64,000 bases of DNA from Candidatus Kaiserbacteria bacterium (lineage in GTDB: Bacteria > Patescibacteriota > Minisyncoccia > Phycocordibacterales > UBA2100), in the NCBI GenBank assembly GCA_016217925.1, contig JACRFK010000004.1, forward strand, positions 133,869 through 197,868, given 5' to 3'. Each line of letters opens with the position of its first letter. The stretch's first letter is position 1. Both the position numbers and the translations under genes were made by a program. Below, one piece after another: positions 2,566-62,256 of this stretch. A model generated the notes under the pieces. That model made no database searches. It was not told where the DNA came from and saw only the letters and a list, made by a program, of their open reading frames with translations.

Positions 2566-3240
2566 TTATTCCACCCCCGTTATTTTTCCCGCTTCGGCGG
2601 CGCCTTCGGCTGCCTGTTCGGCTATCGAGTCGTCGGGTGCAGAGACCTGGATGTCGCGACCTGCGGGCCTGGTGGCCGGTCCACGGACGTTACGTCCGCT
2701 GCCGCGTACGGGGCGGTAGTTCAAGAGGTAGCGGCGCGGGTCTTCGTCTAGGTCGAGGAAGTTGTCGGTCGCTTCGCGGAGTTTGCCCGAGGTCGAGCGG
2801 CCGAAGGAGACGACCTCCACCTGGCAGCCGGCGTGCATTTGTAAGTACTGAACGAGCGGGACGAAGTCGCCGTCGCCTGTGATGAGGATGACTGCGTCGA
2901 GGTTTGGTGATGCGGTGATGGCATCTACCGCCATACCGACGTCCCAATCCGCTTTTTTGGCACCGCCGTAGAAGACCTGGAGCTCTTTGGTCTTTGGTTC
3001 GATGCCGACTTTCGTAAGCGCTTCGATGAAGGCCGTCTCTTCACCGCTCTCGGTGGTCACCATGTAGGCGCGTGCGCGGATGAGGCGACGGCCGGCGACT
3101 GAATCCTTGAGGACGTTGCCGAAATTCACGCGCGCATGATAGATATTTTTCGCGCTGTGGTAGAGATTTTGCGTATCGATAAATACACCGACGCGCTGTT
3201 CTGAGTGTTTGATTATGGCCATATGATTTTGCGAAATCAT
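2566..3240 (-). CDS. NYN-domain (LabA/DUF88-like, PIN-fold) protein
   Basis: motifs VGVFIDTQN and ILITGDGDF typical of the NYN domain; the track ORF starts at a TTG, first ATG is at 3240. Confidence 0.6.
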   Translation of the reverse strand: MISQNHMAIIKHSEQRVGVFIDTQNLYHSAKNIYHARVNFGNVLKDSVAGRRLIRARAYMVTTESGEETAFIEALTKVGIEPKTKELQVFYGGAKKADWDVGMAVDAITASPNLDAVILITGDGDFVPLVQYLQMHAGCQVEVVSFGRSTSGKLREATDNFLDLDEDPRRYLLNYRPVRGSGRNVRGPATRPAGRDIQVSAPDDSIAEQAAEGAAEAGKITGVE

Positions 3241-3282
3241 GTCGCGTCCCGTCAATTGTTACGCGACCCGCTTTCTGTTAAT

Positions 3283-3743: not shown

Positions 3744-4271
3744 TTATTGGGTCGCCGCCGGGGCCTGTGTGGTAGCGGGCGTCGAGGTGCCGGGCTGTAC
3801 CTTCACGAGCTGAACCTGGAAAATAAGCGTCGAATTGGCTGGAATTATGACTTTTCCGGAAGCTGGGTCTTTCACGTCCTGATCCCCGTAGGCAAGGCTC
3901 GGGGGAATCGCGAGGAGACGCTCTCCACCTTCTTTCATGGTGTTGATACCGATCTGGAAGCCGGGAATAAGGCCCTGAGAACCGAGTACGAAGGTAAGCG
4001 GCTTGTTGTCGTGAGCAGCGGAACTGTCAAAGACGGTACCATCGGTAAATTTACCTACGTAGAGGACGGAGACGGTGTCTCCGGGCTTTGCTTCAAGGCC
4101 CGTGCCCACCTTCACGTCTTGGCCCTGTACCTGATTAGCCTGATCTGGAGTCGTGGTTGCAGTTTGTTGCGCAGGCGCTGCCGGAAATATCTTTGACTTG
4201 TAAACGAAATAACCACCAATAAGGATTACAATAATAACGACGAACGCGATAACCATTGCTTTTGTATTCAT
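3744..4271 (-). CDS. FKBP-type peptidyl-prolyl cis-trans isomerase, membrane-anchored
   Basis: N-terminal TM helix; GDTVSVLYVGKFTDGTVFDSS...LIPGFQ...GGERLLAIPPSLAYG FKBP motifs. Confidence 0.8.
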   Translation of the reverse strand: MNTKAMVIAFVVIIVILIGGYFVYKSKIFPAAPAQQTATTTPDQANQVQGQDVKVGTGLEAKPGDTVSVLYVGKFTDGTVFDSSAAHDNKPLTFVLGSQGLIPGFQIGINTMKEGGERLLAIPPSLAYGDQDVKDPASGKVIIPANSTLIFQVQLVKVQPGTSTPATTQAPAATQ

Positions 4272-4315
4272 AGCTTGTACAGGATAACTCTTCAGAAGAA
4301 TCGTGCAAGGGTTGC

Positions 4316-5569
4316 ATGAGACGGGTAGAGCGTATACTGGGAATTATGGAACCGCTCGCGTCAAAGATACGACCGAAAACGCTCGACGAGTTCGTCGGTC
4401 AGGAGCACTTGACGGGCGCGGGCAAGCCTCTGCGCGTGGCCATCGGGAAGAAAGAGCTTTTCTCATTTATTTTGTGGGGGCCGCCGGGGAGCGGCAAGAC
4501 GACACTCGCGCGCATCTACGCAAATGCGGTCGGCGCGGATTTCTATGAGCTCTCAGCGGTCGATTCGGGCAAAGAAGATATAAAAAAAGTGGTCCGCCTT
4601 CGCCAAGGCTTCGGCGGACAAGTCGGCTTGCCTCTAAAAGAAAAACCGCGCGTGCTGTTTGTCGACGAGATACATCGCTTCAACAAAGCTCAACAAGATT
4701 TCTTACTTCCCTTCGTCGAGCGCGGCGACATCACGCTCATCGGTGCGACCACGGAGAATCCCAGCTTCGAGATTATTTCGCCGCTGCTTTCCCGTTGCCG
4801 CGTCTTCGTATTGAACGAGCACTCAGAAGGAGAAATGAGGTTGATTATTGACCGTGCATATGCGGCGGTACAGAAAAACGCCCGCCCCGTCAGAGATAAG
4901 AACGCAAAGCGTTCTGGCGACGCAAGTCGCATCTCTAACGGGGCAAGCGAGTGGCTCGTGCGGATGGCAAACGGCGATGCCCGCCAAGCGATAACCACAC
5001 TCGAAACGACGCAGGCGCTCTATGGAAAGATTTCACTTGAGAATCTCAAAGAAGCCATTCAATCAAAACATCTTCGCTACGACAAAAAGGGCGAAGAGCA
5101 CTACAACACCATATCCGCGTTCATTAAGAGCATGCGCGCTTCACAGCCGGATGCTGCGCTCTACTACCTCGCGCGCATGGTGGATGCGGGCGAAGACCCC
5201 AAATTCATTGCGCGGCGCATGGTGATATTCGCAAGCGAAGATATCGGGCTCGCACAACCGACCGCGCTGGTCGTCGCCAATGCGGTGTTTGAGGCAGTCA
5301 ACAAAATAGGATATCCCGAGGCGACGATAAACCTTGCGCACGGCGTCGCATACCTCGCCCAGTGCAAAAAAGACCGCCGCTCATACGATGCGGTCTTTGA
5401 AGCGCTCGATGATGTAAAAAGATTCGGCAATCTCCCCATCCCGCTTCACATCCGCAACGCACCGACGAAGCTCATGAAAGAATTGAAGTATGGAAAAGGC
5501 TACAAGCAATACGACAAAGAATCCTATCTGCCGGAAAAACTAAAAAAGAAAAAGTATTTGAAAGGTTGA
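4316..5569 (+). CDS. rarA: replication-associated recombination protein A (AAA+ ATPase RarA/MgsA)
   Basis: Walker A GPPGSGKTTLA, FVDEIHRFNK, sensor motifs; a second in-frame ATG at 4346 is also a possible start. Confidence 0.85.
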   Translation: MRRVERILGIMEPLASKIRPKTLDEFVGQEHLTGAGKPLRVAIGKKELFSFILWGPPGSGKTTLARIYANAVGADFYELSAVDSGKEDIKKVVRLRQGFGGQVGLPLKEKPRVLFVDEIHRFNKAQQDFLLPFVERGDITLIGATTENPSFEIISPLLSRCRVFVLNEHSEGEMRLIIDRAYAAVQKNARPVRDKNAKRSGDASRISNGASEWLVRMANGDARQAITTLETTQALYGKISLENLKEAIQSKHLRYDKKGEEHYNTISAFIKSMRASQPDAALYYLARMVDAGEDPKFIARRMVIFASEDIGLAQPTALVVANAVFEAVNKIGYPEATINLAHGVAYLAQCKKDRRSYDAVFEALDDVKRFGNLPIPLHIRNAPTKLMKELKYGKGYKQYDKESYLPEKLKKKKYLKG

Positions 5570-7431: not shown

Positions 7432-7512
7432 ATGGCGGCAGATTTGAAGGGGCTTAAGACGCAATTTCTCCCCGCCGGAGGCGGGTCCTCCTCCGGAGGA
7501 GAATACTTATGA
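7432..7512 (+). CDS. upstream ORF (26 aa) mimicking the Xer N-terminus; its TGA stop overlaps the xer ATG (ATGA)
   Basis: [26 protein letters not shown]; residues [10 protein letters not shown] match Xer residues 3-12 (9/10) with 8 of 10 codons synonymously different. Confidence 0.4.
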
Positions 7513-9686
7513 AAGACTTAAAGGGTTTGAAAACCGAGTTTCTGGAGTATATAGAAATTGAAAAAGGGCGGAGCGTGAAGACGGTCGAGAATTATGACCG
7601 CTATCTCATGCGGTTCCTCAATTTTGCAAAGGTGAAGTCCCCTGCCCAGATAACCGAGCAGATGGTGCGTGAATTCCGTATCACACTCAATCGTTCCGCA
7701 GGGGTTACAGGCACGATGAAGAAGAATACACAAAATTATCACCTCATCGCGCTGCGCGCGTTCCTCAAGTTCCTCCGCAAGCGTGATATCGAATCGCTCA
7801 ATCCCGAGCGTATCGAACTTGCCAAGGTCGGTGGACGCGATTTGGATCTCATTACCGCCGATGAGCTCAACAGGATCATGCGTGCGCCCACGGGTGACGA
7901 GCTAGGGGGTCTGCGCGACCGCGCGATCCTCGAACTTTTGTTTTCTACCGGTTTGCGCGTCTCGGAACTCTGCAATTTGAATCAGGATATTGACCTCTCT
8001 CGCGATGAGTTCTCGGTGCGCGGCAAAGGAGAAAAGGTGCGCGTGGTATTTCTCTCGGCGTCCGCGAAAAAAGCGGTGGCCGAATATTTGAAAAAGCGCG
8101 GTGATATGAGCAAGGCGTTGTTCGTCAGTTACGGCAAAGGCGGCACGAGCAAGGGAAAAGATTTACCGCGCATCACTCCGCGCTCCGTCGAGCGATTGGT
8201 AAAACAGTACGCGATAAAAGCGGGCATCACGCGCAAAGTGACGCCGCATGTCATTCGTCACTGTCTCCACGCGGAAACGCGAATAATGGGAAACCCTTCG
8301 CTCACAACGGCGAAGGAGTTGTTCGCATCCGAAAAGCAAAAGAAGGTCCTTGGATTTGATTGGAAAAACAATCGTCTCATGCGGGCCTCGATTAAGAGAC
8401 GTGAAACACATTCCACACAACGCCTGATTTCTTTATGGGCGGACGGCCGGGAAATTTGCTGCACCCCGTACCACAGCTTTTTCACCCCGAGCGTTAACGG
8501 TATTGTGCCGATACAAGCACAAGACCTGAAAGTTGGGGATTATGTAGCGGGAGTTCGCAGTGTTCAATGGTCCCAGGGAAGTAGACCCGAAAGCGAATCC
8601 ACGGACTTTTGGAGATTGCTTGGATATATTCTTGGTGATGGAACGCTTAGTGAGGCACGGCGAGGTATTATCATAAATGATAAAGAACGTCGCCACATTG
8701 ACCTATACAACGAAATTGTTTTTCGTGTGACGGGCAGGTGCGGAACCGTCACTAAATTGTCAGGCGGCAATGGGTACGCGCTCAATATCTACAATGTTGG
8801 TTTTCTGAAAAAGGTACGAGCTCTTGGAATTACACAGCGTTCAAAAGAACGGCGTGTCCCCGCGGGCCTGTTTCAGGAGTCCGAGACCGCGATCCGAGCC
8901 TTTCTTGCAGGCTATTACGATGCCGAAGGAAATAACGGCAGGATTAAGATGTTCTCCGCAAGTAAGGAACTTCTGAAAGACATACAAATGTTGCTGCTCC
9001 GGTTGTCTATCGAGAGCATACTGCTCCGCCGAGAGCGGCGAGTGAAACTTCCCCAAGGTCGGGTCATTGACCACGTCATATACATACTGCATGTGACGTA
9101 TCCACCAAGCGAGAATCGCTTTGTGGAACTCATACCAACATTCAAACAACGCATACGACCGAAAAAAGAGTGGCAGCGACTCGATATTGCATTACCTACG
9201 CAACCACTGATTCGAGGACTCTACCCCCTTTTGCTTGCCAAGAGGGGTTTCATCCATTGGCTCGGTAACCGTTATGGCATACGGTACCTGAAACGTTATA
9301 CAAGAATATGTACAACACCGCTGCTGCTCTCTGTGTTTCTTAAGGCCTGCAAAGAAAAAAGAATTCGAAATCCATTTATCAAGCAACTCGAGGTTCTCAA
9401 CCGACTCGATTCGATTCGATGGCTCCGAGTGAAGAAGCTGGAGATGGTCGGCGGTGTATCGAAAGTTTACGATTTCACGATAGAACCAACGCACAATTTC
9501 ATCACAGATGGTTTTATCTCGCACAACTCATTCGCGACTGACCTACTCGAAAATGGTGCCGATCTGCGTAGCGTGCAAGCGCTCCTCGGCCACGCCAACA
9601 TCGCAACGACCCAAGTCTACACGCACGTGACCGACAAACACCTCCGCGAAGTCCATCAGGCATTTCACGGCAAACGCCGCAAATAA
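7509..9686 (+). CDS. XerC/XerD-family tyrosine recombinase containing an in-frame intein
   Basis: N-terminal SAM-like domain; ...TPHVIRH then a 422-aa insertion then [34 protein letters not shown] (R-H box and catalytic Tyr region). Confidence 0.85.
8262..9527 (+). mobile_element. intein with LAGLIDADG homing-endonuclease domain inside the xer gene
   Basis: starts with Cys right after HVIRH; ends with His-Asn before Ser+1 (SFAT); block B TPYH; LAGLIDADG motifs [11 protein letters not shown] and [11 protein letters not shown]; C-terminal blocks [12 protein letters not shown]...ISHN. Confidence 0.8.
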
Positions 9687-22071: not shown

Positions 22072-22464
22072 ATGGTTGGTGACGCAGCGAGAAAAGAAGT
22101 TGGTCGCCTCGGGGAAGACATCGCCGCTCAGTTTCTTCTAAGGAAGGGTTTCAGTATCCTTGCCAGGAATTATCGGAAGCCGTGGGGCGAGATCGACATC
22201 ATTGCGGAAAAGGACGGGATTGTGCGGTTCGTGGAGGTAAAGGCAGTTTCACGTGAACCTCTGTCGAGTATTTCGGATGAGATATCCAACTACAGGCCTG
22301 AAGAGCAGGTGCATCCCACGAAGCTCAAGAAGATCTGCCGGACAGCTGAGCTCTACATGGCTAATAACAAAGACGAAAGGGAATTTCAGGTTGATGTAGT
22401 AGGCGTATTTCTGGACATGAGGGGCCGCAAGGCCCGCTGCCGGCTCCTGGAGCAAGTCCTGTAG
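22072..22464 (+). CDS. UPF0102/YraN-family endonuclease-like protein
   Basis: GEDIAAQFLLRKGFSILARNYR...GEIDIIA...RFVEVKA matches the YraN family. Confidence 0.7.
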   Translation: MVGDAARKEVGRLGEDIAAQFLLRKGFSILARNYRKPWGEIDIIAEKDGIVRFVEVKAVSREPLSSISDEISNYRPEEQVHPTKLKKICRTAELYMANNKDEREFQVDVVGVFLDMRGRKARCRLLEQVL

Positions 22465-51369: not shown

Positions 51370-52866
51370 ATGAACATGTCTGTCAATGTCTTATGGGCAC
51401 TCGTCGGAGGATTCTTGGTGGGAGTCTTTGCGCGCTCATTCTTTTTGGTGCCGTGGCCATTTGCGGCTTTTTTATTCTTACTTTCCCTCGGCGCGCTCGC
51501 CCTCGCATACTTCGAAAGGTCAAAATGGCAGCAGTTGGTAGTCGTTTCGGTCGCGCTCACCGCATGTGCCGCAGGGATTTTTCGCATGGATCTGGCCTCG
51601 TTGCGCGGTGCTCCGGAACTCACCTCGCATCTCGGGGAGACGGTGACCGTCGAAGGTTTGGTCGTTGACGAGCCGGATGTTCGCGAAAGCAACATGCGGC
51701 TGCACATACGCGTTGGGGAAACCGGCGTACTCGCCACGGTGCCGCCGCATACGGAAGTGCACTACGGCGACATCGTCCGCGCTAAAGGCAAGCTCGGATT
51801 GCCGGAGAATTTCGACACAACTCTCGGTAGGCAATTTAATTATCCGATGTATCTCGCCAAAGACGGGATCGTATACACGCTCTCGTTTGCGCAAGCCGAT
51901 ACGGTAGCGAAAGGGCACAGCAACTTCCTGAGAACGGCGGCGATTTGGACAAAGCAGCAGTATCTGAAAGGGTTGCAAGTAGTTTTGCCGGAGCCGGAAT
52001 CGGGACTTGCCGGTGGCATTACGGTGGGAGACAAGCGCGGAGTGGGAAAGGAGTACTCGGACATTTTTATTGTCGTCGGGCTTGTGCACATCATCGTGCT
52101 TTCCGGATACAACATAACCGTCGTGATGAACTTGGTCGGGAAGTTGCTCGCGGGCGCATCGCGCGTGGTACAACTCTCGACGAGCGTACTCATCGTTGTG
52201 TTCATTGTGCTCATGACGGGCATGGCGCCAAGTGCGACACGTGCCGGCGCGATGGCGCTCCTCCCGCTCGTCGCGCGCATGACGGGGCGCATGTATCTGG
52301 CGCTCCGCGCGCTTGGGGTCGTCGCACTCGTGATGGTGCTTTGGAATCCGTATATCCTCGCGTTTGACCCGGGATTCCAATTATCCGTACTCGCAACACT
52401 CGGACTCGTGCTTTTCTCGCCCGTATTTGCGCAGTGGCTGTATTGGATACCGGAAAAATTCGCACTGCGCGAGATCGCCGCCTCGACACTCGGTACGCAA
52501 ATGACGGTATTGCCACTCTTGTTGTATCAAAATGGGCTTCTCTCGCTCGTCGCATTGCCCGCGAACCTCCTTGCGCTCATCGTGGTGCCGCTCGCGATGG
52601 CACTCTCTGTCATCTCCGCGATGGCGGGGATATTGTTCGGCTTGCCCGCCCTGAGCGCAGTCGAAGGGTTTGGGACGTTCATCGCATTTCCTGCATATGT
52701 ATTGCTCGCGTATATCATCAAAGTTGCTGAACTTTTCGCCGCGTTGCCATTTTCCGCGGTATCGGTCGCCGCGTTCAGCGCGTGGTGGATGTTTGGAGCG
52801 TACGCGCTCATGTTCGGCGGGTTGTGGTCCATGAAAAAAGGCACGACCGATGGTCGCGCCTTTTAA
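51370..52866 (+). CDS. comEC: ComEC/Rec2-family DNA-internalisation channel protein (membrane domains only)
   Basis: DUF4131-like N-terminal region plus competence domain GITVGDKRG...IVVGLVHIIVLSGYNIT; no C-terminal MBL domain (encoded separately at 55500). Confidence 0.8.
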   Translation: MNMSVNVLWALVGGFLVGVFARSFFLVPWPFAAFLFLLSLGALALAYFERSKWQQLVVVSVALTACAAGIFRMDLASLRGAPELTSHLGETVTVEGLVVDEPDVRESNMRLHIRVGETGVLATVPPHTEVHYGDIVRAKGKLGLPENFDTTLGRQFNYPMYLAKDGIVYTLSFAQADTVAKGHSNFLRTAAIWTKQQYLKGLQVVLPEPESGLAGGITVGDKRGVGKEYSDIFIVVGLVHIIVLSGYNITVVMNLVGKLLAGASRVVQLSTSVLIVVFIVLMTGMAPSATRAGAMALLPLVARMTGRMYLALRALGVVALVMVLWNPYILAFDPGFQLSVLATLGLVLFSPVFAQWLYWIPEKFALREIAASTLGTQMTVLPLLLYQNGLLSLVALPANLLALIVVPLAMALSVISAMAGILFGLPALSAVEGFGTFIAFPAYVLLAYIIKVAELFAALPFSAVSVAAFSAWWMFGAYALMFGGLWSMKKGTTDGRAF

Positions 52867-55499: not shown

Positions 55500-56393
55500 A
55501 TGTCGACGGTCAACGATAGTGCGGGCTATACTTTGGCCATGCGAAAAAGCGTGCGGATAAAAGGGGCGGCGATAGTTGTACTTCTCCTTGCCACGCTCTG
55601 CATCTGGTACGCGGCAATACAGGAAGACCACCGCGGCTTTCTCGCTGTTTCTTTCCTTGATATCGGCCAGGGCGATTCCATTTTCATCCAAGTGCCTTCA
55701 GGCAGGCAGGTCCTTGTCGACGGCGGCGCGAACACAAGCGTGTTGCGCCAGCTTTCGCGTGTGATGCCTTGGTACGACCGTTCAATTGATGTCGTTATTT
55801 CTACTCACCCGGATGCCGACCACATCGGCGGACTCATAGATGTGCTCGCGCGGTATAAAGTGGATACCGTCGTTCACTCAAGCGTCGAAGGGGATACGAA
55901 AACATTCGCCGCCTTCAACCGCGCGATGGTGGACGAGCACGCACAAGAGGTTGTCGCTATCCGCGGACAAATTGTTGACCTCGGTAGAGGGGCGTACCTC
56001 CAAATACTTTCTCCCGACCGGCCCGTGCCACATGAAGATACCAACGATGGTTGCGTCGTGGCGCGGCTCGTCTACGGAACGACCGCATTCATGCTTTCGT
56101 GCGACGCGCCGCAATCTATTGAAAATTATCTCGTAGCCCTCGGCACGTCTACCCTCAAATCAAATGTCTTGAAAGCCGGACACCACGGCTCTAAGACTTC
56201 TTCGTCACCGCTTTTCCTCGGATATGTCGCGCCTGAGTACGGCGTATTCTCCCGCGGCTGCGACAACAGCTACGGGCACCCCGCGCCGGAAATCGTCGCG
56301 CGCTTCGCGCAATTCGGCATCCCGACATTCGATACCTGCAAAGACGGCACGGTTACATTCGTGTCCGATGGAAAGACCGTGAGGAGGAATTAG
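55500..56393 (+). CDS. standalone metallo-beta-lactamase-fold hydrolase of the ComEC C-terminal-domain type
   Basis: LDIGQGDSIFIQ...VLVDGG...HPDADHIGG...GHHGS motifs; N-terminal TM. Confidence 0.7.
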   Translation: MSTVNDSAGYTLAMRKSVRIKGAAIVVLLLATLCIWYAAIQEDHRGFLAVSFLDIGQGDSIFIQVPSGRQVLVDGGANTSVLRQLSRVMPWYDRSIDVVISTHPDADHIGGLIDVLARYKVDTVVHSSVEGDTKTFAAFNRAMVDEHAQEVVAIRGQIVDLGRGAYLQILSPDRPVPHEDTNDGCVVARLVYGTTAFMLSCDAPQSIENYLVALGTSTLKSNVLKAGHHGSKTSSSPLFLGYVAPEYGVFSRGCDNSYGHPAPEIVARFAQFGIPTFDTCKDGTVTFVSDGKTVRRN

Positions 56394-56672: not shown

Positions 56673-56712
56673 TAATTTACAATTTTGCAATTTACAATTT
56701 TCAATCAATTTC
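56673..56712 (+). repeat. left AT-rich inverted repeat flanking the four-helix-bundle gene
   Basis: AATTTACAATTTTGCAATTTACAATTTTCAATCAATTTCC; partner at 57102-57130. Confidence 0.5.
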
Positions 56713-56714
56713 CA

Positions 56715-57092
56715 ATGGAACAAGCTTCAAACAAGAAGCAATACGACCTCGAGGAGCGGACGGCCGTTTTTGGTGAATCTGTCATCGGTCTGTGCAAACA
56801 GGTGCGACATGATGCGGTTACGAAGCCGATCGTTAATCAGTTGATCAGGTCCGGTACCAGTATCGGGGCAAACTACATGGAAGCCAACGGTGCCAGCTCA
56901 AAGCGGGACTTCATCAACAAAATCTTTATCTGCAAAAAAGAAGCTCAAGAAACGAAACACTGGCTCCGCATGCTTGCGAGTTGTTTGCCGGAAAAGGGCG
57001 TGGCGATACGTACTCTGTGGAAAGAGTGTCAGGAGCTCACCCTCATTTTTCAGAAAATTGCCGCTTCCTCGCGTTTGAAAATTGAGCCTTGA
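56715..57092 (+). CDS. four-helix-bundle protein (23S rRNA intervening-sequence protein family)
   Basis: GTSIGANYMEANGASSKRDFINKIFICKKEAQETKHWLRML is the family signature. Confidence 0.8.
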   Translation: MEQASNKKQYDLEERTAVFGESVIGLCKQVRHDAVTKPIVNQLIRSGTSIGANYMEANGASSKRDFINKIFICKKEAQETKHWLRMLASCLPEKGVAIRTLWKECQELTLIFQKIAASSRLKIEP

Positions 57093-58287: not shown

Positions 58288-58469
58288 GACAAAGAGCCGC
58301 CGCCCAGTTTTCTTTCTCGAGCCATCCCTAGTACACCCCGTGAGATAAGCTAACGCGTGTTATGACGTACGTTTGAAAATACAGAATCTTTTTGAGTGCC
58401 CACAAAAACTGGACTTTTTTATCTCATGGGGTACACTCCTCGGACTCCCTTCGGGGATTTTTAATTGTC

Positions 58470-58886
58470 ATGTCGACCATAAATCAACTTACGCGTAAGG
58501 GCCGGGCAAAAAAGACCTGGCGCACGAAGACCATCGCGCTTTCGCGCGGTTTCAACACGCTCGAAAATCGCCCTTCTTTCTACTCCGCACCCTTCAAACG
58601 CGGTGTTTGCACCCGTGTGACGACTAAGACTCCCCGCAAACCGAACTCCGCTATCCGCAAAATCGCGCGCGTACGCCTCACCAACGGTATGGAAGTCACG
58701 GCCTACATTCCGGGCGAGGGCCACACTCTGCAAGAACACTCGGTCGTTCTTATCCGCGGTGGACGCGTGAAAGACATCGGTGTGCGCTACACGATAGTGC
58801 GCGGCAAATTAGATGCGACAGGCGTCGAGAAGCGTCGTCGCGGCCGCTCTAACTATGGTGCCAAGAAGCCCAAGGCTAGTAAATAG
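58470..58886 (+). CDS. rpsL: 30S ribosomal protein S12, with an ~10-aa insertion near the N-terminus
   Basis: [12 protein letters not shown] ... [58 protein letters not shown]. Confidence 0.9.
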
Positions 58887-58907: not shown

Positions 58908-58968
58908 AAAATACATTCAAATTCAGAATTCACTAATCACTAACCACTATTGGCTAACTACTATTCCC

Positions 58969-59430
58969 ATGCGACGCCCCACAAAAAACAGAAAACAGCC
59001 GCAGCCGGACGAAGTGTACGGTTCGTTCAAAGTCGCGAAGCTCATCAACTACGTAATGGAACGCGGCAAGAAAGACACCGCCCGCAAAATCGTATACAAG
59101 GTGATGGAAGAATTGAAGAAAGAAGGCGATCCCGTAACTGTTCTTGAAGATGCGCTTGAGAAGGCCTCGCCATCGGTAGAGGTGCGCTCTCGCCGCGTCG
59201 GCGGTGCCAACTATCAGGTACCTCGCGAGGTGAATCCCGCCCGCAGAATGGCGCTCGGTATGCGCTGGATAGTGGAGGCCGCCGAAGGCACTAAGGGCAA
59301 GCCGATGAACGAATCTCTTCTCGCCGAAATCCTCGCCGCACACAAAGGAGAAGGCGCCGCCGTCACCAAAAAAGAGACGACGCACCGCATGGCCGAGGCC
59401 AACAAAGCCTTCGCCCACTTCGCTTGGTAA
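58969..59430 (+). CDS. rpsG: 30S ribosomal protein S7
   Basis: KFVNYVMERGKK..., VEVRSRRVGGANYQVP. Confidence 0.9.
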   Translation: MRRPTKNRKQPQPDEVYGSFKVAKLINYVMERGKKDTARKIVYKVMEELKKEGDPVTVLEDALEKASPSVEVRSRRVGGANYQVPREVNPARRMALGMRWIVEAAEGTKGKPMNESLLAEILAAHKGEGAAVTKKETTHRMAEANKAFAHFAW

Positions 59431-59436
59431 TTTTCC

Positions 59437-59946
59437 ATGCATGTTACGCGTGAGGATGCGCAGATTCTCGCCGGCAAACTGAAAGAGGCAAGTCCTCATA
59501 TTCACCATATTGAATTGTTTGGAAGCGTGCTGCGGAATGGTTTGGGGAATGATGCCGACCTTGTTCTCATCGTCGACGAAGGCATTGCACGACGGTGGTG
59601 GAATGAGATGGGGGACGAGCTGCGTGTCCGTATGGGTACGCGCTGGCTTCCTCTCAGGCGATTCATAAAAACGTACCTCACGTGGCTCGACACGATGAGC
59701 ATTCGGGGGAGGAAACATCGCCGCATCGCACGCGCGTCGGAATTACTCGGCGTCAACATCGAGAAATTGGTCACTGAGTACAAGCCCGGCGCGATGGTCG
59801 ATATCTTCCTTTTCCCTGAAACGTGGCGTACCGAAAAAACACCAAATATGTCGGTTCTATGCTCGCTTGCCGGCGTCATCCGGGACCACAAGGAAACTCG
59901 GCTTTTTTTGGAACGTACCGCGCACAGTGCTATTCGGCTCAATTAA
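59437..59946 (+). CDS. minimal nucleotidyltransferase-domain protein inserted between rpsG and fusA
   Basis: ELFGSVLRNGLGNDADLVLIVD is the GS..D.D nucleotidyltransferase signature; 169 aa. Confidence 0.55.
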   Translation: MHVTREDAQILAGKLKEASPHIHHIELFGSVLRNGLGNDADLVLIVDEGIARRWWNEMGDELRVRMGTRWLPLRRFIKTYLTWLDTMSIRGRKHRRIARASELLGVNIEKLVTEYKPGAMVDIFLFPETWRTEKTPNMSVLCSLAGVIRDHKETRLFLERTAHSAIRLN

Positions 59947-60013
59947 TCTTGCATTTCTTCGAATTTCCGTTACATTACTGAGACGCGCACAGCGCGTTTT
60001 TGTTTAAATCACT

Positions 60014-60118
60014 ATGGCACGGGATTACCCACTCGAAAAAGTCCGCAACCCCGCAGGAAAGCGCTATGCACTTCCGACGGGGCATGCTTCGGTAGCTAAC
60101 TTCGCATTAAATATATGA
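60014..60118 (+). CDS. upstream ORF (34 aa) mimicking the EF-G N-terminus; its TGA overlaps the fusA ATG (ATGA)
   Basis: [34 protein letters not shown]; 11 of its first 12 residues are identical to EF-G, with all nine compared codons synonymously different. Confidence 0.4.
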
Positions 60119-62256
60119 GTAGAGATTACCCGTTAGAGAAGGTGAGAAATTTTGGGATAGTAGCGCACGTGGATGCTGGCAAGACGACCACATCCGAGCG
60201 TATTTTGTATTACACGGGCGAGAGCCACAAAATCGGCGAAGTACACGAGGGCAACACGGTGACCGACTGGATGGAACAGGAGCGCGAGCGCGGCATCACC
60301 ATCACCGCCGCCGCCATTACTTGTTTCTGGAATCCTTCGTACATGGGCACCGACCTCTCGGCGAAAGTGCGCTTCAACATTATTGATACCCCCGGACACA
60401 TCGACTTCACTTCCGAAGTGAAGCGTTCCATGCGTGTGCTCGATGGCGCGGTCGTCGTCTTCGACGGCGTCGCCGGTGTCGAGCCGCAATCGGAGACCAA
60501 TTGGCGCTATGCCGAAGAAGCCAACGTGCCGCGCATCTGCTACATCAACAAACTCGACCGCACGGGCGCGTCATTCGAAAAGTCATACGCCTCTATTCTC
60601 GACCGCCTTTCCACGAAAGCCGTGCGATTCCAAATCCCCATCGGACTCGAAGAAAAATTCGAGGGCATCATTGATTTGCTTTCCATGAAGGCGTATCACT
60701 TCGAAGGCGAAATGGGAAAGAACGTCGTCGCCGGAGACATCCCCGCAAACATGATGGACGAGGCCAAGAAATATCGTCACGAACTCGTCGAACGCATCGT
60801 TGAAAATGACGATGCGGTCATGGCGGACTTCTTGGACGGCAAAGAAATTCCGCTCGACGTCCTGAAGTCGACGCTCCGCAAGGGCGTTATCGCGAATAAG
60901 ATTTTTCCCGTACTCACGGGCAGCTCTCTCAAGAACAAAGGCGTGCAGCTCGTCCTCGACGCGGTTGTCGATTATCTCCCGTCACCGAAAGACATGCCGG
61001 AATCAAAAGGAGTCAACACAGATACAGGCGCGGAGGAAACGCGTCCCGCATCCGATGAAGCACCATTTGCTGCGCTCGTTTTCAAAATTCAGACAGACCC
61101 GTTCGTCGGACAGCTCTCGTTCTTCCGCGTCTATTCGGGTACCTTTACCGCGGGCGACACAGTCTACAATTCCGCCAACAATAAGAAAGAGCGCGTCGGA
61201 CGCATCGTGCGCTTGCAGGCGGATAAGCGCGAGGACGTGAAAGAGGTCTACGCAGGCGAAATCGCCGCCGCGGTCGGCATGAAAGAAGTGAAAATCGGAC
61301 ACACACTCTGTGATGTAGCGCACCCCATCGCGCTCGAATCCATCGTCTTCCCGGAGCCCGTCGTCTCGATGCGCATTGAGCCCAACACAAAAGCCGACCA
61401 GGAAAAAATGGGTATGGCGCTTTCAAAGCTTTCTGACGAAGACCCGACCTTCCGCATCAAGTCGGACCCCGAGACGATGGAAACTATCGTATCGGGAATG
61501 GGTGAGCTCCACTTGGAAATTATCGTCGACCGCATGAAGCGCGAATTCGGCGTGCAGGCGACGACCGGCAAGCCGCAAGTCGCATACCGCGAGACCATTC
61601 AGGGTACAGCGGATGTTGAATACAAACACATCAAGCAGACGGGCGGTCGCGGTCAGTATGGCCATGTGAAAATCCGCGTGAAGCCGCTTGAGCCGGTAGA
61701 AGAAGGCAAGAAGGTCAAGAACAATGTAGAGCGCGACGACCATTTCGAGTTCATCAACAACATCAAAGGAGGCGTCATCCCGCAGGAATACATCCAGCCG
61801 GTGAAGAAGGGTCTCATCGAGGCGATGGAGCGCGGCATTCAAGCAGGATTCCCCGTTGTCGATATTTCCGTCGAGCTCTACGACGGCTCGTACCACGATG
61901 TGGACTCATCCGAAATTGCGTTCAAGCTCGCCGCCATCAACGCAATGCAGGAGGCGATGCAGAAGGCGAAGCCCGTCATCCTCGAACCGATAATGAAATT
62001 GGAGGTCGTCGTCCCGGAGAAATTCATGGGCGACGTGACGGGTATGATAAACAGCAAACGTGGCGCCATCGAGGCGATGGGCGAGCGCGGTCAGGCGCGC
62101 GTCATCACCGCGAAAGTTCCGCTTTCAGAGCTTTTCGGCTTTACCACTCAGCTCCGAAGTTTGACGGAGGGAAGAGGAGTACCGAACTTGGAGTTCTCGC
62201 ACTACGCAGTCGTACCGAAGACCGCAGCAGACGCTGTCATCGCAAGCAGGAAGTAA
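60115..62256 (+). CDS. fusA: translation elongation factor G
   Basis: G domain [21 protein letters not shown]; domains II-V; 713 aa. Confidence 0.95.

Follow-up and report, generated by a model that had tools for sequence, protein, structure and literature searches.

The window examined here is a stretch of 64,000 nucleotides (nt) from a Candidatus Kaiserbacteria bacterium (GenBank assembly GCA_016217925.1, contig JACRFK010000004.1, positions 133,869 to 197,868 of the forward strand), and the gene of interest is a small nucleotidyltransferase (NTase) open reading frame (ORF) located between rpsG and fusA. Compared with the corresponding loci of relatives, this arrangement suggests that the rpsG–fusA junction in Kaiserbacteria is probably a recombination hotspot at which accessory cargo, the NTase included, is swapped. 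In agreement with the initial annotation of this DNA, the ORF encodes 169 amino acids (aa) and contains the described GS...D.D motif as LFGS(29-30)...GND(39)AD(41)L; it begins 6 nt past rpsG. An upstream ORF (uORF) that mimics the N-terminus encoded by fusA is likewise present downstream of the NTase gene, at 60014–60118. The rpsL, rpsG, NTase and fusA genes all lie on the plus strand, and rpsG and fusA are 684 nt apart. The features of the locus are the following.

58470–58886, plus strand: rpsL, ribosomal protein S12 (Pfam Ribosom_S12_S23, E = 4.4e-34), the first gene of the unit.
58969–59430, plus strand: rpsG, ribosomal protein S7 (Pfam Ribosomal_S7, E = 1.4e-50).
59431–59436, plus strand: 6-nt spacer, ttttcc, from the rpsG stop to the NTase ATG, read from the sequence.
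59437–59946, plus strand: NTase ORF, 169 aa, ATG start, a nucleotidyltransferase of the Pol-beta superfamily.
59949–59976, plus strand: predicted fusA promoter, with −35 TTGCAT (59949–59954), a 16-nt spacer and −10 TACATT (59971–59976), assigned by consensus match and conservation.
59983–60005, plus strand: leader hairpin ACGCGC-ACA-GCGCGT followed by a U-run, conserved in relatives and present in the minimum-free-energy fold.
60014–60049, plus strand: putative displaced fusA start (codons 1–12), the first third of the uORF, assigned by similarity to the fusA starts of relatives and by promoter spacing.
60014–60118, plus strand: uORF of 34 codons, whose stop TGA (60116–60118) overlaps the fusA ATG (60115–60117) as ATGA.
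60050–60114, plus strand: unique spacer of 65 nt, single copy, part of a putative 101-bp inserted segment.
60115–62256, plus strand: fusA, EF-G, 713 aa (Pfam EF-G domains, E = 1e-60).

Two minus-strand ORFs (58954–59718 and 59502–59942) overlap rpsG and the NTase gene and are shadows of them. The final ~36–58 nt of rpsG (ending in AEANKAFAHFAW and the stop) are the stretch that is repeated in L001 and L005, two of the related loci, which are denoted here by L numbers. In the 6-nt spacer between rpsG and the NTase gene, a promoter, a terminator and a Shine–Dalgarno sequence were all sought, and none is present. Because the NTase gene is promoterless and lies 6 nt behind rpsG, it would be expressed from the rpsL–rpsG transcript; it is probably co-transcribed with these genes and translated by termination–reinitiation.

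That the NTase ORF is a real gene and not a chance reading frame follows from three results: its homologues form 11 clusters at 90% identity (49–100% identical), the ratio of nonsynonymous to synonymous substitution rates (dN/dS) against the closest relative is 0.08, indicating purifying selection, and the AlphaFold (AF2) model is confident (predicted local distance difference test score, pLDDT, of 87.4; predicted template-modelling score, pTM, of 0.81). A profile search of 1.8 billion representatives returned 178 proteins at E ≤ 0.001, with ~20 full-length relatives of the NTase, and a metagenome profile search with the NTase alignment returned three loci, two of them already known. No relatives were found in PHROGs or in plasmid and phage sequences, and there are no paralogues within the window. 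The GC content of the gene is 0.531 and that of its third codon positions (GC3) 0.60, relative to window backgrounds of 0.551 ± 0.035 and 0.64 ± 0.059. The contrast in GC and codon usage with its neighbours that had been suggested as a check is thus not seen; the composition is native.

A sigma-70-like promoter is predicted upstream of fusA in 10 of 10 Kaiserbacteria-type loci, with a −35 element of TTGCTT, TTGCAT or TTCACT, a spacer of 16–17 nt and a −10 element of TACATT, TATATT or TATTCT. The promoter is followed in all relatives by a conserved GC hairpin (ACGCC-loop-GGCGT) with a T-run, and the fusA ATG is found 35–43 nt past the −10 element, or, in two loci whose leaders are longer, 78 and 105 nt past it. 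A terminator hairpin also lies shortly before the promoter in several loci. In the window, the predicted promoter begins 3 nt past the NTase stop, and 37 nt separate its −10 element from the ATG of the uORF; the present fusA ATG is not at that spacing. A generic promoter scan with stricter rules reported no promoter. As fusA has its own conserved predicted promoter and leader, the rpsL–rpsG–fusA operon would already be split in this clade. The earlier description of a gene wedged into a conserved operon therefore holds for the position of the NTase between rpsG and fusA, and not for its setting, which is a general cargo hotspot ahead of a gene with a promoter of its own. The hairpin at 59983–60005 could be a stem-loop or stabiliser of the 5′ untranslated region, an attenuator, or a terminator of read-through from rpsL–rpsG–NTase. 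The rpsL leader also has a short GC hairpin and U-run (58437–58457) that resembles an intrinsic terminator; in both rpsL and fusA, such a terminator-like hairpin and U-run lie 10–20 nt 5′ of the ATG.

To place the 684-nt gap in context, an S7 scan of genome contigs was used to sample ~70 unrelated bacteria, distant ones with no Kaiserbacteria among them; in most of these the rpsG–fusA distance is 17–200 nt. In Kaiserbacteria-type loci the gap is 684–3286 nt, and its cargo differs. Between the NTase gene and fusA, the content varies by lineage and includes a 349-aa minus-strand ORF, a 202-aa ORF, a flavin adenine dinucleotide (FAD) oxidoreductase with a glyoxalase and a SHOCT gene, and a DoxX-like gene with a SHOCT gene, among others. 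Where the NTase is absent, the gap encodes a secreted 167-aa protein and an RHH/RelE-like pair (L089), five genes with FabA-like and UDG genes among them (L090), or two small proteins (L092). Some cargo genes recur among loci in varying combinations. Enlarged gaps are also seen in several other Paceibacterota, with a RelE/ParE-like toxin gene in L011 and a glmM-like gene in L014. The RelE/ParE-like toxin genes lie at 5127–5608 in L089, with an RHH-like gene upstream, and at 7518–7826 in L011, a Taylorbacteria genome. The FAD-dependent oxidoreductases beside the NTase in L006 (4540–5793) and L097 (2850–4004) are not homologous to each other, and L006 also carries a glyoxalase/VOC gene and a SHOCT gene. 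No description of an rpsG–NTase–fusA arrangement was found in the literature.

For comparison with the window, seven further distinct contexts of the NTase gene and three close relatives without it were available; all sequences compared are metagenome assemblies. The identity of each NTase to that of the window and its position are given below.

Window: 100% identity, 6 nt past the rpsG stop.
L001 type (also L002–L004 and L094): 80% identity, 7 nt past the rpsG stop.
L005: 72% identity, 6 nt past the rpsG stop.
L104: 64% identity, 7 nt past the rpsG stop.
L006: 49% identity, 9 nt past the rpsG stop.
L007: 51% identity, frameshifted, ~60 nt past rpsG.
L101: 31% identity, ~60 nt past rpsG.
L097: about 52% identity, third gene in the gap, with a 4-nt overlap with the FAD enzyme gene.

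Loci L002–L004 are further assemblies of the L001 type with equal gap length. A frameshift divides the NTase homologue of L007 (4001–4508) and L008 into two ORFs, 4001–4366 and 4314–4508; the 121-aa product has been recorded in two assemblies, and the gene looks like a decaying copy. NTase relatives at 32–35% identity are found elsewhere, in L099 and in L102. On the short L102 contig, a LAGLIDADG homing-endonuclease-like ORF (228–908) lies upstream of the distant, acidic relative, which suggests an rRNA-intron neighbourhood.

The three Kaiserbacteria loci without the NTase (L089, L090 and L092) encode S7 proteins that are 90–91% identical to that of the window, and they carry other cargo in the gap in its place, in agreement with the earlier proposal that the gene is accessory. 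A neighbour-joining tree built from S12, S7 and the EF-G N-terminus shows loci with and without the NTase intermingled. In addition, the divergence of the NTase is decoupled from that of its host: L101 has an S7 that is 88% identical to the window protein and an NTase of only 31% identity, whereas the S7 of L007 is 57% identical and its NTase about 51%. By these comparisons, the NTase is accessory yet strongly tied to the rpsG–fusA site. A gene universal at this position with no sign of mobility is not what is observed, since three close relatives lack it and repeats of the rpsG 3′ end bracket it in two others.

The first of these two, L001, contains a 36-nt copy of its own rpsG 3′ end (ending in EANKAFAHFAW and the stop), 35/36 identical and located 2 nt past the NTase stop. 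A third copy, longer and more diverged (ending in EEANKAFAHLAW and the stop), lies 3′ of the 349-aa ORF. The spacings of these copies are 555 and 1170 nt (nhmmer E = 1.9e-11 and 1.7e-12), and the triple repeat is present in two independent assemblies, L001 and L094 (L002–L004 were not scanned). In L005, a 26–29-nt copy of the rpsG 3′ end, 22/26 identical, begins at the NTase stop; the two copies of this locus are spaced 546 nt apart (E = 1.9e-4). A possible further relic is found in L095, a 1-kb contig without an S7 ORF, where a sequence ending in GAPFAW and a stop (~200–221) lies ~40 nt 5′ of an NTase homologue of 50% identity; it is faintly like the S7 C-terminus (AHFAW and stop) and may be another rpsG-end relic. 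No gene-end relics were detectable in the NTase-negative loci, and no rpsG-3′ or fusA-5′ relics in the Paceibacterota with enlarged gaps (L010, L011, L012, L014 and others). The diverged gene-end copies, including the fusA 5′ pair of the window described below, differ as follows.

Window, fusA 5′ copies: 14 nt differences, 1 aa change, P < 5e-6 under random substitution.
L001, rpsG 3′ copy 3: 5 nt differences, 1 aa change, stop kept, P = 0.004.
L005, rpsG 3′ copy 2: 4 nt differences, 1 aa change, stop kept, P = 0.02.

As these differences are mainly synonymous, the extra copies would derive from other functional rpsG or fusA alleles and not from decayed local duplicates.

An alternative to exchange at the junction is that the NTase belongs to the str operon of this lineage by vertical descent and has a translation-related job, such as the modification of rRNA, tRNA, S7 or EF-G, with repeated loss alone accounting for its patchiness and the gene-end repeats being scars of other arriving cargo. 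The gene is always co-directional with rpsG, lies 6–9 nt after it in five contexts (window, L001 type, L005, L006 and L104) and ~60 nt after it in two more (L007 and L101), and stays in the gap even at 31–52% identity (L101 and L097). Native composition and purifying selection fit this account, as a translation-related job would fit the basic, RNA-binding-like insertion of the str-linked proteins; moreover, if the ancestor was as compact as the window, illegitimate joints would be confined by selection to the position right after the NTase stop. Vertical inheritance would, however, need at least three losses of the NTase among close relatives, and it is at odds with the decoupling seen between L101 and L007. 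The L001 bracket also appears young relative to the spread of the NTase, because its repeat is 35/36 identical to the rpsG end of the same locus, although L001 and L005 have rpsG ends that differ from each other at 5/36 positions. We therefore regard vertical inheritance as a possible but somewhat doubtful account.

In the window, a scar of the same kind lies at the other border, on the fusA side. Codons 1–12 of the uORF match codons 1–12 of fusA at 11/12 residues, and the two fusA 5′ copies are spaced 101 nt apart (nhmmer E = 2.8e-4) with a DNA identity of 61%. The fusA starts of relatives match the displaced start at 23–32/36 nt and the present start at 19–26/36 nt. The window EF-G is 97% identical in amino acids to that of L001, and the first ~60 nt of fusA diverge more than the rest of the gene, in keeping with a crossover a short distance downstream. 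From these alignments, the uORF is best described as a recent scar in which a 101-bp segment displaced the original fusA start. Through the ATGA overlap, ribosomes that load at this old start would plausibly reinitiate on fusA. Such stop–start overlaps couple translation in many bacterial operons; here, too, the stop of the upstream cistron overlaps the downstream ATG, but that cistron is a displaced fragment of fusA itself and is not conserved in relatives. The earlier idea that the uORF may preserve fusA expression is in keeping with the native promoter, leader and start and with the ATGA overlap; as regards expression itself, it stays a suggestion.

The 65-nt spacer at 60050–60114 has no second copy in the window or in any fetched locus, no Rfam match and no significant structure (fold z of −0.19), and the long fusA leaders of L001 and L092 are not convincingly homologous to it; on these grounds, it was rejected as a repeat element or structured RNA. 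Codon GC3 was dropped as a sign that the present fusA start is foreign, because the fusA starts of relatives are AT-rich too and the measure does not discriminate; the comparison relies on identity to relatives in its place. A tblastn search with the uORF matched only the genuine fusA start in L001–L008, with no second copy in any relative. As the uORF is absent from every relative, NTase-bearing ones included, it does not result from the NTase and is not a conserved regulator either, and the tie that had been drawn between it and the insertion of the NTase gives way to a separate scar on the fusA side.

Such a duplication might also be an artefact of assembly, in which strain variants were joined into a chimera at the repeated fusA 5′ end and possibly also at the compact NTase–promoter junction. 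A single contig accounts for the only record of the exact NTase protein, listed as a hypothetical protein of a Candidatus Kaiserbacteria bacterium, and the uORF arrangement occurs in no other locus examined, both as expected of an artefact. However, the fusA 5′ copies do not look like collapsed strain variants, since they are only 61% identical in DNA, and 65 nt of unique sequence lie between them. The reading frames are also precisely arranged at the ATGA, and L001 and L094, which are independent assemblies, both contain the analogous rpsG 3′ repeats. An artefact is consequently extremely unlikely.

We propose that the conserved rpsG 3′ end and fusA 5′ end act as portable homology anchors for the exchange of cargo, so that genes including the NTase would be gained, lost and reshuffled by recombination, possibly with DNA imported from related strains. 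Direct repeats would also allow precise loss, which fits the patchy distribution of the NTase. Two routes can be envisaged. In the first, small circles that carry cargo and a gene-end copy would integrate by a single, Campbell-type crossover and give arrays in which cargo alternates with gene ends; in L001, the NTase would then be the newest unit, which fits its 35/36 identical repeat and an older third copy. In the second, homology to one flanking gene would anchor linear DNA from a related strain, whose other end would be joined illegitimately, leaving a fragment of the donor gene end at the joint. In a compact ancestor resembling the window, only joints right after the NTase stop would spare the NTase. 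In the window itself, the 101-bp segment (65 nt and the foreign-looking codons 1–12) would have been joined after codon 12 of the resident fusA, turning the original start into the 34-codon uORF that is ATGA-coupled to the new one. The data appear to fit either route, and to fit either the NTase or its neighbours as the moving part.

To our knowledge, homology-facilitated illegitimate recombination has never been shown in bacteria of the candidate phyla radiation (CPR). This process is described during natural transformation (PMC3240628). An anchor in a conserved gene at one end and an illegitimate joint at the other would yield partial rpsG 3′ and fusA 5′ duplicates such as those observed; in Kaiserbacteria, the process is read from the scars. 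ComEC competence genes, which bear on DNA uptake by transformation, are present in the window. ComEC appears split there, with a DUF4131 and Competence gene at 51370–52866 (plus strand) and a metallo-beta-lactamase gene 2.6 kb downstream at 55500–56393 (plus strand). The sole recombinase seen in the window is a XerC/D-type tyrosine recombinase of 725 aa (7509–9686, plus strand), 50 kb away and interrupted by an intein (Phage_integrase, E = 2.8e-37; Intein_splicing, E = 1.3e-19; LAGLIDADG_3, E = 1.9e-11, a homing endonuclease in the intein). The window also encodes an NYN-domain RNase-like protein (2566–3255, minus strand) and a UPF0102 (YraN-like) endonuclease-family protein (22072–22464, plus strand).

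Several observations weigh against this reading of the locus and of its enzyme. No recombinase domain was found in any gap ORF examined, and neither transposases nor inverted repeats were found in any gap, so that scars alone speak for the recombination route. No rpsG 3′ repeat was detected past the NTase in the window, and none is detectable in L006, L097 or L104. The repeat adjoining the NTase stop may be the left border of cargo imported beside the gene and not a sign that the NTase itself is mobile, and the tight rpsG–NTase junction and native composition of the gene equally fit long vertical residence. In addition, the uORF arrangement is known from one assembly only, the marker tree was built by neighbour joining from ~530 aa, and the Foldseek matches of the NTase are all weak (E ≥ 0.03, TM scores of 0.3–0.4).

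The proposed exchange shares features with known mobile systems. In islands at tRNA genes and in staphylococcal cassette chromosome elements at rlmH/orfX, tandem composites included, direct repeats reconstitute the 3′ end of the target gene. Similarly, the segments in L001/L094 and L005 have direct repeats of the rpsG 3′ end at their borders, leave the target intact and vary in their presence, and L001, with three copies of the rpsG 3′ end in a tandem array, resembles a composite island. Unlike such islands, these gaps contain no integrase or Ccr-type recombinase, the units are 546–1170 nt long, the repeats are allele-like, a mirror-image scar exists at the fusA 5′ end, and the window has no rpsG repeat. 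As in integron cassettes, the units of L001 and L005, ~550 nt long, consist of a promoterless single ORF, tightly packed behind an upstream promoter and followed by a short repeat that resembles a recombination site; in contrast to cassettes, what is repeated is a ribosomal protein gene end, and no IntI was found among the window ORFs scanned. A speculative and unlikely extension is that, in Kaiserbacteria or Paceibacterota, cassettes of an integron-like system whose array contains no dedicated recombinase attach at the rpsG 3′ end and perhaps at the fusA 5′ end. The ribosomal protein promoter would then be followed by a tandem series of captured units of ~550–1200 bp, each with an rpsG-end repeat at its end, and the basic-insertion NTase would be a recurrent first cassette that possibly acts on RNA or the ribosome.

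As for the protein itself, it belongs to the Pol-beta-like nucleotidyltransferase superfamily as a divergent subfamily. The match of the window protein to Pfam NTP_transf_2 (E = 0.096, 13.5 bits) is below the curated cut-off of 21. Of its close homologues, 10/11 match Polbeta (best E = 1.9e-5) and 9/11 match NTP_transf_2 (best E = 6.1e-5), and in the wider family these matches are found in 20/32 (best E = 4.9e-7) and 16/32 members, respectively. The superfamily motif, hG[GS] with [DE]h[DE]h, is satisfied by F28-G29-S30 and D39-A-D41-L. In the predicted structure, strands comprise residues 24–28 (followed by G29-S30), 39–46 (with D39 and D41) and 120–127 (with D122), which would form a minimal nucleotidyltransferase core of the alpha-beta-alpha-beta-alpha-beta fold, with D122 as the third catalytic carboxylate on a later strand. 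This position is D or E in nearly all family members. Residues G29, S30, G37, D39, D41, P127 and W130 are invariant across 32 members, and D-x-FL-x-P-x-x-WR is a family signature, whose FLxPxxWR portion accompanies the C-terminal helices. Given the intact catalytic residues and purifying selection, this fast-evolving minimal enzyme is probably active.

A helical insertion of ~55 residues (63–118) lies between the second and third catalytic strands; it contains 14 Lys/Arg and has an isoelectric point (pI) of 11.7, relative to 9.8 for the whole protein. Members of the family linked to the str genes mostly have a pI of 9–10.3 and carry this basic insertion. The distant members are acidic and do not have it; they include P0172, confirmed to lie outside the str locus. 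The insertion is clade-specific and probably nucleic acid-binding. From the basic insertion in the rpsG-linked members and the expression shared with S12 and S7, our best guess, weakly held, is that the substrate is RNA or is associated with the ribosome, and that it is neither a HEPN toxin nor an antibiotic.

The first of these two other substrates corresponds to an orphan antitoxin of the minimal nucleotidyltransferase (MNT) type, that is, a selfish HEPN–MNT (type VII) remnant that AMPylates a HEPN RNase encoded elsewhere and persists as an addictive or defence element. Antitoxins of the MntA type are the best matches of the NTase: 5yep_A is the only match of its profile to PDB sequences, a weak one (E = 0.58 over 42 residues), and Foldseek gives 7ae2_B, 8xeh_E and 8xeo with probabilities of 0.8–0.9; its similarity scores to such antitoxins are weak (E = 0.03, TM scores of 0.32–0.40). 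MNT antitoxins, a putative nucleotidyltransferase of Sulfolobus, LinB and AadA are the top structures in the PDB, with no match outside the ~50-residue core. There are weak PADLOC PDC-S09 matches, RelE/ParE-like toxin–antitoxin genes share the gap in L089 and L011, and the rapid evolution and patchy distribution of the NTase fit an orphan antitoxin. MntA antitoxins and this protein are indeed alike in their small size, minimal Pol-beta core, GS...DxD motif, rapid evolution and patchiness. HEPN genes, however, strictly co-localise with MNT genes (PMC3710099). The search for a cognate HEPN or antitoxin partner proposed in the initial annotation found no HEPN domain in the neighbours of the NTase in ~8 contexts, nor in the ten small or relevant window ORFs scanned. 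The Rx4-6H motif is not conserved, 169 aa with a 55-residue basic insertion is atypical relative to MNTs of about 100–145 aa, and, unlike MntA modules, the NTase is part of a ribosomal protein transcription unit. An orphan antitoxin is accordingly quite improbable. The earlier portrayal of the gene as selfish likewise loses ground, as there is no HEPN partner among the neighbours and window ORFs scanned, no recombinase in the gaps and no plasmid or phage relative, and the GC content is native.

One gene of the window was considered as a HEPN-like partner. It encodes a 135-aa four-helix-bundle protein of the 23S_rRNA_IVP family (56685–57092, plus strand, E = 1.5e-13), between rpmB and an M50 peptidase gene; we take this family to be grouped with HEPN-like domains. 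It was rejected as a partner, being absent from every NTase-bearing relative. As it is missing from the syntenic region of all relatives, it would be another strain-specific insertion.

An antibiotic-modifying nucleotidyltransferase, ANT- or Lnu-like and co-expressed with the ribosomal targets that it would protect, is very unlikely. Enzymes such as ANT(2'')-Ia and Lnu(A) have a similar size and layout, with an NTase core and a helical C-terminus; together with ANT(9), they resemble the window protein in length (about 160–180 aa) and in this architecture. The NCBIfam ANT(9) model has a weak match in 2/32 family members (E of about 1e-3), LinB, AadA and ANT(9) appear among the Foldseek matches, and the neighbouring FAD-dependent oxidoreductases (L006 and L097) and glyoxalase/VOC gene (L006) belong to classes that include resistance enzymes. 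Against these points, no NCBIfam family, ANT and Lnu included, matches the window protein, so that significant similarity is lacking, and fold matches are limited to the core of ~50–60 residues at E > 0.2. The FAD enzymes of L006 and L097 are, moreover, not homologous to one another. Enzymes that bind cationic aminoglycosides are acidic, whereas the window protein is basic (its pI and that of its insertion are given above).

The gene-end duplicates, including the coupled uORF ahead of an essential fusA, are the most interesting part of this locus. If the NTase were only an orphan MNT-like gene, its presence would be an ordinary finding; it nevertheless defines an uncharacterised, basic-insertion subfamily linked to a ribosomal protein gene, and if it does act on RNA or the ribosome, it would represent a new translation-associated activity in CPR bacteria. 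These organisms have tiny genomes, and how they acquire accessory genes is little understood. The locus suggests that the rpsG–fusA junction, tight in almost all bacteria, can turn into a hotspot for cargo when fusA is driven by a promoter of its own, and that the two flanking gene ends, by virtue of their extreme conservation, can supply the homology for exchange between lineages. Allele-like gene-end duplicates would then be a readable record of recombination events, one that can be searched systematically.

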